Shown here piece by piece: positions 11,238 to 15,274 of a stretch of 64,000 bases of DNA. Source of the stretch: an uncultured Acidobacteriota bacterium (GTDB taxonomy: Bacteria; Acidobacteriota; UBA6911); NCBI GenBank assembly GCA_963827655.1, contig CAWHCF010000042.1:32001-96000 (forward strand), in the 5' to 3' direction. Below the pieces are notes generated by a model. The model was not told the origin of the DNA, searched no databases, and saw only the letters and a list, made by a program, of their open reading frames with translations. Each line of letters opens with the position of its first letter. Position 1 is the stretch's first letter. The translations under genes were made by a program, and so were the position numbers.

Positions 11238-14200
11238 TCGCCGAGAGCATTGAGAAACTGTCGAACGTCCACTCGTCCGAGAACCCTTTCCCCGGACTGC
11301 GTCCGTTCGAGCTTCACGAGAGCCATCTATTTTTCGGGCGCGAGGGGCAGAGCGAAAAGCTGCTGGCTAAACTCGAGGCCACGCGCTTCCTGGCAGTCGT
11401 CGGCACGTCGGGGAGCGGCAAATCGTCGCTCGTGCGCGCGGGGCTCGTGCCCGCGTTGTTGGGCGGGATGATGGTCAGCGCCGGATCTAACTGGCGCGTC
11501 GCCCTGCTGCGCCCGAGCAATGATCCGATCGGCAATCTGGCGCGGGCGCTTGAGCTCGCCCGAGGTCTTCGGCTCGGACATTTCGGAGAATGCGGAGAGC
11601 CAGGCACGGGTCGCTGAAGCGACGCTGCGGCGCGGCAATCTCGGGCTGGTCGAGGCCGTGCGGCTGGCATTGCAGACCGCGGACGAGAATCTGCTGGTGG
11701 TCGTCGATCAGTTCGAGGAATTGTTCAGGTTCGCGCGCGAGGCCGAGAGTACGCGCTACGAAAACGACGCGGCGGCTTTCGTTAAACTGCTGCTCGAACC
11801 CTCGCGCCAATACCAGTTGGAGCAGGAAGAACTGCGCCGGAAATTACAGTCCATCGAAGGCTTACTTCGGCACCAGAAGCTGAGTCACGAAGAAGCTCGT
11901 CGAGAGGAAGCTTCAGTCCGGGAAGAAGCCCGCAAGCGTGACGCTGAGAATTTACGTCGTGCTGACGATGCGGTCGGATTTTCTGGGCGATTGCGCGAAG
12001 TTCTGGGATTTGCCCGAAGCCGTCAACGAGAGCCAGTACCTGATCCCGCGCCTGACCCGCCATCAACTGCGCGAGGCTATCGCCGGCCCGGTCGCCGTCG
12101 GCGGCGGCCAGATCGCGCCCCGCTTAGTCAATCAATTGCTCAATGATATAGGCGATAACCAGGATCAGTTACCCGTGCTGCAACACGCGCTGATGCGGAC
12201 GTGGGGCGAATGCAAGCAACGGAAGCACGACCACGTAGCCGCACCCGGTGAAATTGATGTGTGCTGTTACGAAGCAATCGGCGGGATGAAGGAGGGGCTC
12301 TCCCGCCACGCCGGCGAAGCTTACAGCGAACTCGACGCGGCGTCATCAGAAGATCGCCGAAAGGATGTTCAAAGCTTTGACCGAGAGGGGTGAGGACAAC
12401 CGCGAAATTCGTCGCCCGGCGACACTTGGCGCGCTCGCCGCCATCGCGGATGCCGGCGAGGACGAGGTCAAAACAGTTATCGAAAAGTTTCGCCAACCGG
12501 GCCGGTCGTTCCTGATGCCGCCCGCCGGGACGCCGCTGCATTCTGACACCTTGATTGACATCTCGCACGAAAGCCTGATCCGCGTGTGGAAAATATTGCA
12601 GCAGTGGGTTAATGAAGAGGCCGAATCGGCGACCATCTACCGCCGGTTGGCTGAAACCGCGGCGCTGCACGGCAAAGGCGAAGCCGAACTGTTGGGCAAG
12701 CTCGATCTGAAGCCGGTGTTGAAATGGCGGAAGAAGAACGAGCCGAACCCGCATTGGGCCGCGCGATACGAATCCGGCCTGCGCTACAAATCGGACCTGC
12801 CGGCGGCGCTGGCCTTTCTCGAAGCGAGCAAAAAGAACCGCGCGGACGAGATTGCCGAGCGCCGGCGGAGCAGGAGGGAGAAGGCGGAGCAAGGCCAGCG
12901 CCAGTTGGCGCAGGCGCAGGCCCTGGCCGAAGCACAGTCTCAGGCGGCGGACGCCGAACGGCAAAAGGCAGAAGAGCAGACTAAAGCGGCAAGCCGATTA
13001 CGGCGCTTCCTGGCGGCATTGGTCGTTGCGGCTTTGTTGGCGCTCGTGGCTGCGGGCCTCGCTCTCTCGGCGTACCGCCGCGCCAATGCAGAAAAAGCCA
13101 ACGCGAACAGACAAAAGGAGATTGCCGAAAACAGAAGAGAGGCCGAGCAGCCAAAGGGATGCACTTGATCAAAAGACCATAGCCGAGGAGAAAGACAAAA
13201 GCCGAAGACGAGAGAGGCTGAAAGCACGCGACGCGCGGCAACAAACTGAGGCAGCGAACAACGCAACTAGAGAAACGGAACGGCAAAAGCAACTGGCTGA
13301 TAGCACAGCCTACATCGCAAATATGAATCTTTCTCGGTCTGAGTTCGAAAGAGGCAATCATCAAAGGGGGTTTGAGTTACTTGACGCATATCTGCCTGCA
13401 ACCAACGCAGCGCAAGATCAGAGTGGTTTGCGGAGCTTCTATTGGTATTACCTCTGGCGACAAAACAATAGGGATTACACGCTCACCGGGCATGGGGACT
13501 TCTGTCTTGTCAGTGGCGTTCGCGCCGGACGGGCGGACGCTGGCCAGTGCGAGTGGGGACAAGTCGGTGAAGCTGTGGGACGTGCAGAGCCGCAAGGAAG
13601 TGGCCACGCTCACCGGGCATGGGGCTGTTGTCATGTCAGTGGCGTTCGCGCCGGACGGGCGGACGCTGGCCAGTGCGCAGTGGGGACAAGTCGGTGAAGC
13701 TGTGGGACGTGCAGAGCCGCAAGGAAGTGGCCACGCTCACCGGGCATGGGAGCTTCTGTCAGGTCAGTGGCGTTCGCGCCGGACGGGCGGACGCTGGCCA
13801 GTGCGAGTGAGGACAAGTCGGTGAAGCTGTGGGACGTGCAGAGCCGCAAGGAAGCTGGCCACGCTCACCGGGCACGGGGCTGCTGTCAGGTCAGTGGCGT
13901 TCGCGCCGGACGGGCGGACGCTGGCCAGTGCGAGTTAGGACAAGTCGGTGAAGCTGTGGGACGTGCAGAGCCGCAAGGAAGTGGCCACGCTCACCGGGCA
14001 TGGGGCTTATGTCTATGTCAGTGGCGTTCGCGCCGGACGGGCGGACGCTGGCCAGTGCGAGTGCGGACAAGTCGGTGAAGCTGTGGGACGTGCAGAGCCG
14101 CAAGGAAGTGGCCACGCTCACCGGGCATGGGAATGCTGTCTGGTCAGTGGCGTTCGCGCCGGACGGGCGGACGCTGGCCAGTGCGAGTGGGGACAAGTCG

Positions 14201-15274
14201 GTGAAGCTGTGGGACGTGCAGAGCCGCAAGGAAGCTGGCCACGCTCACCGGGCATGCGGACTCATGTCTGGTCAGTGGCGTTCGCGCCGGACGGGCGGAC
14301 GCTGGCCAGTGCGAGTGGGGACAAGTCGGTGAAGCTGTGGGACGTGCAGAGCCGCAAGGAAGCTGGCCACGCTCACCGGGCATGGGGATGATGTCTGGTC
14401 AGTGGCGTTCGCGCCGGACGGGCGGACGCTGGCCAGTGCGAGTGCGGACAAGTCGGTGAAGCTGTGGGACGTGCAGAGCCGCAAGGAAGCTGGCCACGCT
14501 CACCGGGCATGGGGATGCTGTCTGGTCAGTGGCGTTCGCGCCGGACGGGCGGACGCTGGCCAGTGCGAGTGAGGACAAGTCGGTGAAGCTGTGGGACGTG
14601 CAGAGCCGCAAGGAAGCTGGCCACGCTCACCGGGCACGGGGATGATGTCATGGTCAGTGGCGTTCGCGCCGGACGGGCGGACGCTGGCCAGTGCGAGTGA
14701 TGACAAGTCGGTGAAGCTGTGGGACGTGCAGAGCCGCAAGGAAGTGGCCACGCTCACCGGGCACGGGGATTATGTCAGGTCAGTGGCGTTCGCGCCGGAC
14801 GGGCGGACGCTGGCCAGTGCGAGTGCTGACAAGTCGGTGAAGCTGTGGGACGTGCAGAGCCGCAAGGAAGCTGGCCACGCTCACCGGGCATGGGGATTCT
14901 GTCTGGTCAGTGGCGTTCGCGCCGGACGGGCGGACGCTGGCCAGTGCGAGTGAGGACAAGTCGGTGAAGCTGTGGGACGTGCAGAGCCGCAAGGAAGTGG
15001 CCACGCTCACCGGGCACGGGAGTGCTGTCAGGTCAGTGGCGTTCGCGCCGGACGGGCGGACGCTGGCCAGTGCGAGTGATGACAAGTCGGTGAAGCTGTG
15101 GGACGTGCAGAGCCGCAAGGAAGTGGCCACGCTCACCGGGCATGGGGCTCTGTCTTGTCAGTGGCGTTCGCGCCGGACGGGCGGACGCTGGCCAGTGCGA
15201 GTGCTGACAAGTCGGTGAAGCTGTGGGATGGAGCTACAGACAAAGACATTGAGGACTATAAACCGAGGAAATGA
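11234..15274 (+). CDS. nSTAND1-type NTPase - coiled coil - TM helix - 14xWD40 receptor (NLR-like); many apparent indels and one in-frame TAG in the consensus
   Basis: NPFPGLRPF...FFGRE, Walker [10 protein letters not shown], Walker [62 protein letters not shown]...WD repeats; ATGA overlap with TIR gene; stop TGA 15272-15274. Confidence 0.85.
13479..15229 (+). repeat. Tandem array of 14 near-identical 126-nt WD40-coding repeats
   Basis: Unit starts at 13479, 13606, 13733, 13861, 13987, 14114, 14241, 14369, 14496, 14623, 14750, 14877, 15003, 15129. Confidence 0.97.

Follow-up and report, generated by a model that had tools for sequence, protein, structure and literature searches.

The one-base insertions that break a WD40 repeat array in the window, a stretch of 64,000 nucleotides from an uncultured Acidobacteriota bacterium, are, together with one deletion, very probably artefacts of the assembly consensus and not real mutations, as judged from where and how they fall in the sequence. 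The apparent merging of two alleles is assembly-wide and not peculiar to the WD40 locus. The true gene is most likely intact and would encode, besides its NTPase, a membrane helix and a sensor of 14 WD40 blades, in which predicted ligand-facing residues vary between the blades.

The receptor gene and its WD40 array

From its domain matches, the gene product is a predicted TIR-associated nSTAND1 NTPase, whose WD40 sensor is hypervariable on a highly conserved scaffold. The combination of nSTAND1 with a hypervariable WD40 sensor is already a known design. The operon is laid out as follows, with the basis of each assignment in brackets.

9746..11237, + strand: gene for a TIR-domain protein (TIR and two DUF4062-like modules), in two frames (Pfam, frameshift-aware alignment)
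11234..13477, + strand: receptor gene, part coding for an nSTAND1 STAND NTPase, a predicted transmembrane helix and a coiled-coil linker (Pfam PF20703, ORF frames)
13478..15228, + strand: WD40 array of 14 near-identical 42-codon units (126 bp) (Tandem Repeats Finder, unit dissection, Pfam WD40)
15229..15274, + strand: C-terminal tail and stop codon of the receptor gene (ORF 15098-15274)

The TIR gene matched Pfam TIR_2 with E=8.6e-10, its DUF4062 match was weak, and against the NCBIfam FxsC_Nterm TIR-like family it reached 44 bits, under the cut-off of that family. Its end overlaps the start of the receptor gene by ATGA. An intact two-gene homologue, TIR plus receptor, is present at the related locus L034, and a frameshift-aware alignment to the intact 493-aa TIR homologue encoded there showed that the TIR gene of the window is split by one +1 event at about 10433. 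In the receptor gene, the ORF frames step 2>0>1>2>0, and four +1 steps interrupt the nSTAND1 part, the first at 11548, the second within 11798-11953, the third at 12339 and the last at about 13131-13168; the alignment to the L034 protein placed +1 events at 11549, 11799 and 12337. All five frame steps in this non-repetitive part of the operon are thus +1, and a crude GC3 hidden-Markov frame plot, too coarse elsewhere, recovered the frame steps of the operon. The four ORF pieces matched PF20703 with 103.9 bits (profile 1-88), 24.8 bits (92-148), 112 bits (152-277) and 47.5 bits (282-370), the 24.8-bit piece falling under the cut-off of 27.1 bits, and the transmembrane helix is predicted at about 12995-13085. 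Other genes in the window have full-length Pfam matches, and PADLOC returned weak P-loop matches only.

Tandem Repeats Finder reported one array at 13478-15228, with a period of 127, 13.8 copies and 95% matches at the DNA level, and its in-frame pieces matched Pfam WD40 with E of about 1e-24. When cut on an invariant 15-mer, the array gave 14 units, spaced by 127, 127, 128, 126, 127, 127, 128, 127, 127, 127, 127, 126 and 126 bases (n=13), which is enough for two 7-blade propellers. We then split each unit on invariant anchors and compared the scaffold with the variable codons. As a result, the scaffold was the same in all 14 units but for three exceptions: a synonymous His codon (CAT/CAC, 10/4 units), a single GGG>GCG in unit 7, and a C inserted before AGT in unit 2. 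About 111 scaffold bases per unit, over 14 units, thus show one substitution, one insertion and one synonymous dimorphism. The remaining differences between units are confined to five codons, namely the V/L codon and four hypervariable ones, of which two stand after GHG, one after GTC, and one is the X of SAS-X-D.

We also searched for homologous loci. No DNA-level orthologue was found among 50 genomes of the same family, in which only P-loop-sized matches appeared, and no second near-identical array is present in the genome itself (best other match 66-70%). Three related loci, at 45-61% protein identity, were informative on the architecture, and an array comparable to that of the window was absent from all three. 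At the locus L033, the NTPase is internally deleted and a single WD40 unit is followed by a tail similar to that of the window. Identity to the in-frame two-unit piece did not exceed 73% in any of the 120 protein matches listed (8000 candidates scored); many of the listed proteins, of 1100-1300 aa, pair PF20703 with WD40 propellers, and some of these are named 'nSTAND1 domain-containing NTPase'.

Placement of the extra bases

The unit dissection found 12 one-base insertions and one one-base deletion in the array (P = 0.0017 for this share of insertions), and the insertions are mostly non-homopolymer. The affected words and the in-frame stop codon are listed below, all from the unit dissection, joined for the TAG by direct reading of the sequence.

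13854-13857, 14234-14237, 14362-14365, 14489-14492, 14616-14619, 14870-14873, + strand: six GCTG four-base 'codons' at the V/L site of units 3, 6, 7, 8, 9 and 11 (coordinates derived from unit ends; 14616-14619 alone verified against the sequence)
in 13497-13503, + strand: GACT at the first variable codon of unit 1
13678..13678, + strand: the sole scaffold insertion, the C before AGT in unit 2
in 13751-13757, + strand: AGCT at the first variable codon of unit 3
13936..13938, + strand: in-frame TAG at the SAS-X-D codon of unit 4
14014-14017, + strand: TATG at the third variable codon of unit 5
in 14259-14265, + strand: GACT/TCAT in unit 7, with GACT at the first variable codon
14650-14653, + strand: ATGG at the third variable codon of unit 10
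15147..15151, + strand: the sole array deletion, GCTCT where six bases are expected, in unit 14

As many as 12 of the 13 indels lie inside the 15 variable bases of the 126-base unit (binomial P = 9e-11, or P = 1.5e-8 when 1-nt margins were allowed around the variable codons), in agreement with an earlier note on this DNA that had placed nearly all extra bases at polymorphic codons. The same note had described an invariant scaffold with about one indel near 13678 and an in-frame TAG in the SAS-X site, and both were indeed found; the TAG is one substitution away from GAG and involves no indel. The SAS-X codon, with a diversity comparable to that of the other variable codons (five codons plus TAG), carries no insertion in any of the 14 units.

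Furthermore, all five four-base codons outside the V/L site are reducible to two clean codons from the pool of the same site; the chance of such a decomposition is 0.28 per random insertion, and hence about 0.002 for five out of five. The V/L site itself reads GTG in seven units or GCTG in six, clean CTG being absent from all 14 units of the array. The scaffold around this codon, with 3 or 4 bases at the codon, had no exact match in metagenome contigs or genome contigs. The six GCTG occurrences of the earlier note were found, but clean CTG, the second codon of its GTG plus CTG reading, was seen only in the contigs of relatives.

These contigs came from public sequencing runs. Of 24 runs listed, 20 contain part of the stretch (best share of sampled words 0.19), and the matching runs are all soil or rhizosphere metagenomes, in which the matches occur as contigs. 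We compared the window with Logan contigs from four soil metagenomes, which are 90-97% identical to it and represent relatives rather than the same strain; being other strains, they are also compatible with lineage-specific mutations in the window. Base 11548 is missing from the soil contigs in all four runs, and base 12339 in all three runs that cover it. In two contigs of run X1 (depth 16.6), an extra T behind 15148 refills the unit-14 deletion, and at position 13600 the runs X3 and X4 have C for G, which yields a clean CTG without an extra base. Over most of the array (about 13686-15047), the depth was 0-1.7 across the four runs, and the non-repeat parts were covered. Single soil runs contain more than one variant contig across the same stretch.

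We examined frameshifts elsewhere in the same genome, an assembly of 8.2 Mb in 53 contigs that is 90% complete. Among the DUF1501 control loci, 29 were matched in one piece and six were split, with all nine events being +1. Eleven sulfatase and PSD1 loci that were split or matched only in part gave 14 events of +1, eight of +2 and two of -1, with none at one locus; the +2 events may be misplaced, since the paralogues used for their alignment are only moderately identical. Over the DUF1501, PSD1 and sulfatase loci, extra bases account for 31 of 33 frameshift events (P = 7e-8). The damage is patchy, as at C20:8900-10000, where seven events within 1.1 kb adjoin intact genes, with further damaged patches at C20:122100-124500 and C22:80900-83500, and other nSTAND1 paralogues of this genome are split as well. 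The same kind of damage affects a second WD40 array, which lies on a different contig (C13:53560-55365, 82% unit identity) and has 24 of 26 alignment gaps between consensus nt 47 and 95, that is, from the V/L codon through GH-xx-V-x, although gaps in this array would favour the most variable stretch from the alignment alone. No indels (0%) were found in three other arrays of the genome, whose units are 93-97% identical.

Origin of the extra bases

Judging from its contiguity and from the fact that the 1.75-kb array, with units 95% identical, is resolved, the source genome appears to behave like a long-read metagenome-assembled genome. Long-read consensus callers can treat a substitution as a deletion plus an insertion, of which the insertion alone is accepted. 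Where reads carried two different bases at a position, the consensus would have retained both, and the consensus step may have done so by representing the substitution as a deletion and an insertion and accepting only the latter. The output would be the shortest common supersequence of the two alleles, with GTG + CTG giving GCTG, AGT + GCT giving AGCT, and TTG + ATG giving TATG, and the one added base would break the frame. Since the scaffold is identical across units and presumably strains, reads could disagree only at the hypervariable codons, which would explain why the insertions fall there. The proposal of the earlier note that the consensus merges different alleles fits all that was tested, with the five decomposable codons and the clean CTG in relatives in its favour, but its restriction to this locus, or to repeats, did not hold.

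Some features of the array speak against this model. The V/L site, with GTG or GCTG only, demands the extra assumption of one all-GTG read population or an all-GTG draft. The merging of alleles leaves the TAG at 13936, a substitution, unexplained, and the SAS-X codon is diverse, yet free of merged words. An error tied to a methylation motif was considered and rejected: AGCT occurs in seven merged words, yet it is undamaged in every scaffold.

As to the source of the second allele, the sequence patterns lead us to lean towards co-assembled variants of the locus, from other strains of the soil population, as a somewhat better explanation than reads slipped by at least one unit. The arrays with 0% indels, the non-repeat genes that are equally affected and the variant contigs within single runs all speak for strains over slippage. 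According to the latter explanation, which we regard as rather unlikely, there is one haplotype, and the second alleles would stem from reads or read ends that polishing had placed out of register by at least one 126-bp unit. Such slippage would be cheap for an aligner, as the scaffold is identical in all units, and with no second near-identical array in the genome, any cross-talk would be within the array. Indeed, a tally from the unit table found the second allele in a neighbouring unit for 8 of the 11 merged codons; for example, the ATGG of unit 10 stands between TGG and AGG, and units 1 and 3 adjoin GCT. However, with so few and such frequent codons in the pool, chance alone is expected to produce neighbour compatibility of this kind, and units 7 and 8 carry GCTG just as both their neighbours do. 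The very diverse SAS-X codon also shows no merge, and the three other arrays stay free of indels despite their high unit identity. Furthermore, slippage is impossible in the non-repetitive sequence of the operon and in unrelated genes, which show the same insertions. Mis-stacking of reads between repeats, as suggested in the earlier note, is therefore unneeded and somewhat disfavoured. The alternative in the same note, ongoing diversification at this locus, found no support, as no mechanism was seen and the merged codons show only heterogeneity among reads.

That the frameshifts are real, and the receptor gene a decaying pseudogene adjoining an IS630-like remnant, seems very improbable. There is some real decay nearby, because the IS630-like stretch downstream has an in-frame TGA and only a weak family match (E=0.008); the TAG in unit 4, the internally deleted NTPase with a single WD40 unit at L033 and the split nSTAND1 paralogues are also in line with decay. 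However, under random decay 12% of the positions would not collect 12 of the 13 indels, and such decay would have brought substitutions, of which the scaffold shows a single one over 14 units. Bacterial pseudogenes lean to deletions, whereas 12 of the 13 array indels and all five upstream steps are insertions. In addition, since 6 of 35 DUF1501 loci, as well as sulfatase and PSD1 genes, bear the +1 signature, decay would require implausibly many fresh pseudogenes beside intact neighbours. The strict tie of the indels to hypervariable codons could also be taken to mean that the extra bases are functional, with programmed +1 frameshifting or the decoding of four-base codons behind them, or that a targeted diversification (DGR-like or other) left its footprint on the putative ligand-contact codons; DGRs are known to target nSTAND1 proteins of other bacteria, in that case on C-type-lectin domains (PMC10907252). 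This reading is largely refuted, and we give it hardly any weight: at least six different words (GCTG, GACT, AGCT, TATG, ATGG and CAGT) share no common slippery motif, ARAGORN found 46 ordinary tRNAs and flagged none as odd, the scaffold adenines are invariant in 14 units, unlike those of a DGR variable region, and unrelated enzyme genes carry insertions of the same kind.

Related receptors and the meaning of merged codons

The closest known systems are the HNWD/NWD receptors of Podospora anserina (HET-E, HET-D and HET-R), which likewise have 42-residue near-identical WD40 units (HIC), few variable codons on a predicted interaction face, and a STAND NTPase with a death- or TIR-type partner. 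In the fungal HIC repeats, the positions 10, 11, 12, 14, 30, 32 and 39 are described as variable, four of them under positive selection (PMC12222747, PMC4986451). The window varies at 11, 12, 14 and 30 in the register K1 E2 V/L3...G8 H9 G10 x11 x12 V13 x14...S29 x30 D31, which was matched to the fungal positions by eye and not by alignment to a fungal sequence. This register, together with the hotspot statement of Hu et al. (PMC5587647), would place the variable codons on the top face of the propeller. In contrast to the fungal receptors, the protein is bacterial, its NTPase is nSTAND1 and not NACHT, the TIR domain is on a separate upstream gene, and a membrane helix is predicted before the repeats; the positions 10, 32 and 39 are invariant in the window, and position 3 is dimorphic.

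Prokaryotic 'Highly-Repetitive' WD40 proteins with very high internal identity have been described (Hu et al. 2017, PMC5587647), and the array of the window matches their design: the units, with 95% matches at the DNA level, exceed 85% identity, and a STAND NTPase lies directly upstream in the same direction, with a TIR gene as partner. That study is at the protein level and does not treat frameshifts or assembly behaviour. The NTPase also resembles those of the nSTAND1 conflict systems (Kaur et al. 2021, PMC8195603), the function of which is a predicted one, through pieces that match PF20703 above the cut-off.

As in the frameshift errors reported for long-read genomes and metagenomes (proovframe preprint, 10.1101/2021.08.23.457338; Sereika et al. 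2022, PMC9262707), patchy one-base indels split genes here in an otherwise contiguous assembly. In a long-read assembly of the fungal repeats, a single repeat was one base short, which short-read mapping showed to be a likely misassembly (PMC12222747). However, the errors described in PMC9262707 and PMC12222747 are linked to homopolymers, whereas those of the window are insertions, mostly outside homopolymers and at polymorphic sites. A non-exhaustive literature search found no published account of a signature in which both alleles are kept.

At face value, the locus is a shattered pseudogene or a diversification hot spot, and most likely it is neither. One-base insertions would mark read disagreement in this genome and, in all probability, in comparable long-read metagenome bins. 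Gene calls at such insertions cannot be relied on, and where immune-type, repeat-rich or strain-variable genes seem to be decaying, the reads are needed to interpret this. Wherever a four-base codon can be resolved into two sensible ones, it could in turn flag a site that is polymorphic in the sampled population. It is conceivable, though we hold it only tentatively, that the sampled soil population carries at least two in-frame receptor alleles with a common scaffold and different putative ligand-facing codons, as well as differences at the V/L codon in six blades. By analogy, and with the same reserve, the two alleles may reflect natural hypervariability of a WD40 sensor in the style of het-e and het-d, inside one bacterial population. 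If several in-frame haplotypes indeed exist, population-level hypervariability of a bacterial WD40 sensor would be documented.

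Indels in the WD40 array

The units of the array, which forms the C-terminal part of a receptor-like gene, were dissected individually using invariant anchors.

13478-15228, 14 WD40 units in tandem (by Tandem Repeats Finder, 13.8 copies with period 127 and 95% matches)

Cutting at an invariant 15-mer gave 13 unit spacings of 127, 127, 128, 126, 127, 127, 128, 127, 127, 127, 127, 126 and 126 bases, ten of which are overlong since the coding unit is 126 bases. In this anchor-based splitting, the scaffold was the same across all 14 units with three exceptions:

synonymous histidine codon, CAT in 10 units and CAC in 4
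GGG to GCG, unit 7
13678, extra C, unit 2

All other variation is confined to five codons per unit, namely the two following G-H-G, one past the next GTC, the X of S-A-S-X-D, and a V/L codon close to the unit end. We found 12 one-base insertions and one one-base deletion; 11 of the insertions and the deletion fall in variable codons, and the scaffold holds the single insertion in unit 2. For 12 of 13 indels to fall within 15 of 126 positions, the binomial P is 9e-11; allowing a one-base margin raises it to 1.5e-8. The affected words are:

GCTG, V/L codon, units 3, 6, 7, 8, 9 and 11
GACT, variable codon, units 1 and 7
AGCT, variable codon, unit 3
TATG, variable codon, unit 5
ATGG, variable codon, unit 10
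GCTCT, variable codons with one base missing, unit 14

The earlier note had placed nearly all extra bases at polymorphic sites, with about one scaffold indel near 13678, and had read the four-base words as merges of two codons; its description proved accurate in all details checked. Indeed, outside the V/L site all five words reduce, on loss of one base, to two codons found clean at that site elsewhere; a random insertion would do so by chance in 28% of cases, giving about 0.002 for five. The V/L codon is GTG in seven units and GCTG in the six claimed, but the reading of GCTG as GTG plus CTG has no clean CTG to match it in the window array. The reported in-frame TAG lies at 13936-13938 in unit 4 and is a substitution, one step from the GAG of three other units.

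The array is a bacterial case of WD40 repeats with high internal conservation, a design already known. In the excerpts of PMC12222747 and PMC4986451, the 42-residue unit of the fungal HET-E, HET-D and HET-R is described as varying at positions 10, 11, 12, 14, 30, 32 and 39; the window array, with the register matched by eye, varies at 11, 12, 14 and 30. The part of Hu et al. 2017 (PMC5587647) consulted likewise describes prokaryotic 'Highly-Repetitive' WD40 proteins with diversity limited to predicted hotspot sites.

The receptor gene, its partner and further frame steps

The array belongs to the following operon, after which a transposase remnant lies directly:

9746-11237, TIR-domain gene (Pfam TIR_2, E = 8.6e-10), with an ATGA overlap with the receptor gene
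11234 onwards, receptor-like gene
15286-16255, degenerate IS630-family transposase remnant (NCBIfam NF033545, E = 0.008, 15.6 bits, a weak match)

Upstream of the array, four ORF pieces match the Pfam profile PF20703 (nSTAND1, named by Kaur et al. 2021 in the part of PMC8195603 consulted) and jointly cover positions 1-370 of 379; three score 103.9, 112 and 47.5 bits, above the 27.1-bit cut-off, and the fourth scores 24.8, slightly under it. On reading the translation, a transmembrane-like hydrophobic stretch (about 12995-13085) and a charged linker precede WD40 unit 1. Were this stretch membrane-spanning, the WD40 sensor and the NTPase would lie on opposite sides, an unusual arrangement among NLR-like proteins. 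In the related metagenome locus L034, the matching layout, hydrophobic stretch included, lies in a single open frame, and the pair is intact: a 493-residue TIR protein is encoded as one ORF, with the nSTAND1 gene four bases on. The module is thus a two-gene TIR and receptor pair, an NLR-like conflict module of an already described kind. Among the best 120 of 8000 candidates scored, PF20703 occurs together with WD40 propellers in many proteins of 1100-1300 residues; identity to the in-frame two-unit piece reaches at most 73%. In a second related locus (L033 1-2815, 61% identical), the P-loop region is joined almost directly to the C-terminal NTPase part, the frame changes in the coiled-coil linker, and a single WD40 unit precedes a tail resembling that of the window; either this copy has genuinely degenerated or its array was collapsed in short-read assembly. 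The IS630-like remnant shows, on reading, an in-frame TGA at a Trp position of family relatives, and covering soil contigs have small indels against the window at 15486, 15493 and 15569.

ORF frames and alignment revealed five further +1 frame steps in the operon upstream of the array:

near 10433, TIR gene, split by one extra base
11548, receptor gene
inside 11798-11953, receptor gene
12339, receptor gene
about 13131-13168, receptor gene

We then compared Logan contigs from four soil metagenomes over 9600-16400; these represent relatives, 90-97% identical to the window. Base 11548 was absent from the relatives' contigs in all four runs, and base 12339 in all three covering it. Two contigs of run X1 add a T behind 15148, precisely at the missing base of unit 14, and at 13600 contigs of X3 and X4 carry C instead of G, a clean CTG without an extra base. 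The segment 11798-11953, charged and coiled-coil-like within the NTPase domain, is replaced in the soil contigs. In one X3 contig, 154 window bases are missing and 27 different ones stand in their place, the net 127 being 42 codons plus one; the segment is a variable insert coinciding with one +1 frame step. Elsewhere in the window, a sigma-70 gene is followed downstream by two long ORFs with an overlap of about 200 bases, and a GC3 plot shows a frame change near 49722; the region 48587-50612 is possibly another frameshifted gene.

49683-50612, minus strand, ORF with no family
48587-49882, minus strand, TPR/HEAT ORF

Extra bases across the genome

The genome that contains the window (53 contigs totalling 8.18 Mb, 90% complete) was examined with three multi-copy families as controls: DUF1501, sulfatase and PSD1. 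DUF1501 gave 29 one-piece loci, six split loci of two or three pieces each, and four short-fragment rows. Frameshift-aware alignment of the six split loci to their best intact paralogues yielded nine events, every one +1; for DUF1501 genes the rate is about 0.2 per kb. Eleven split or partly matched sulfatase or PSD1 loci gave 14 events of +1, eight of +2 and two of -1, one locus having none. Extra bases thus make up 31 of 33 events overall (P = 7e-8). The sites, located approximately, have mixed G+C surroundings with no more than one or two like bases alongside, and no long homopolymers. Patchiness is strong, a single sulfatase gene carrying seven events next to whole neighbours. Examples of dense patches in ordinary sulfatase, PSD1 and DUF1501 genes, each beside intact genes, are:

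C20:8900-10000 (the seven-event sulfatase)
C20:122100-124500
C20:27050-28500
C22:80900-83500
C23:42750-45100

Reads are needed before any gene-decay reading in this genome. A second array of 14 WD40 units was also found:

C13:53560-55365, 82% unit identity, 66-70% identical to the window array

It is broken across all three frames, with net unit lengths mostly of 127-129; 24 of its 26 alignment gaps fall within consensus bases 47-95 (V/L codon to G-H-x-x-V-x), variable stretches attracting gaps anyway. The nSTAND1 paralogues at C36:15667-16910, C36:28045-29339 and C35:95821-96529 are split into different-frame pieces; those on C41 and C23 are one-piece matches.

Origin of the indels

We consider the array indels very probably an artefact of the assembly consensus and not biological, because frame damage extends beyond the repeats, relatives' soil contigs disagree with the window at indel sites, the extra-base signature runs through the whole assembly, and the second array is shattered too. 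Moreover, real decay yielding 13 indels would have left many scaffold substitutions, and there is one. Long-read consensus callers can represent a substitution as a deletion plus an insertion, keeping just the insertion. Where two read populations differ by a substitution, this would yield the shortest supersequence common to both alleles, and the inserted words behave as such. As the scaffold is invariant, heterogeneity is possible only at the hypervariable codons, which explains the clustering. The excerpt of PMC12222747 describes a long-read assembly in which one repeat lacks a single base, likely a misassembly according to short reads.

That the receptor gene is a true pseudogene appears quite improbable: the nearby IS630-like remnant and the internal deletion in the L033 relative would suit it, but neither where the indels lie, nor their direction, nor their spread through the genome fits. 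With six different four-base words and 46 tRNAs, all ordinary, programmed frameshifting and four-base decoding are practically excluded. Nor does a DGR-like process fit, because the scaffold adenines are invariant; elsewhere, nSTAND1 proteins are indeed DGR targets, though at lectin-fold domains, according to the part of PMC10907252 consulted.

Within the consensus artefact, we lean towards co-assembled locus variants, that is, other strains, as the source of the second allele, since non-repetitive genes suffer equally, three other arrays of this genome, whose units are 93-97% identical, have an indel rate of 0%, units 7 and 8 carry GCTG despite GCTG on both sides, and single soil runs contain more than one variant contig across one stretch. 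Against strains, the lack of clean CTG requires one population to be all GTG, and the highly diverse S-A-S-X codon shows no merge. The TAG of unit 4 is unaccounted for by allele merging, whichever the source of the second allele. The residual interest of the locus lies in whether its merged codons record real co-existing alleles.
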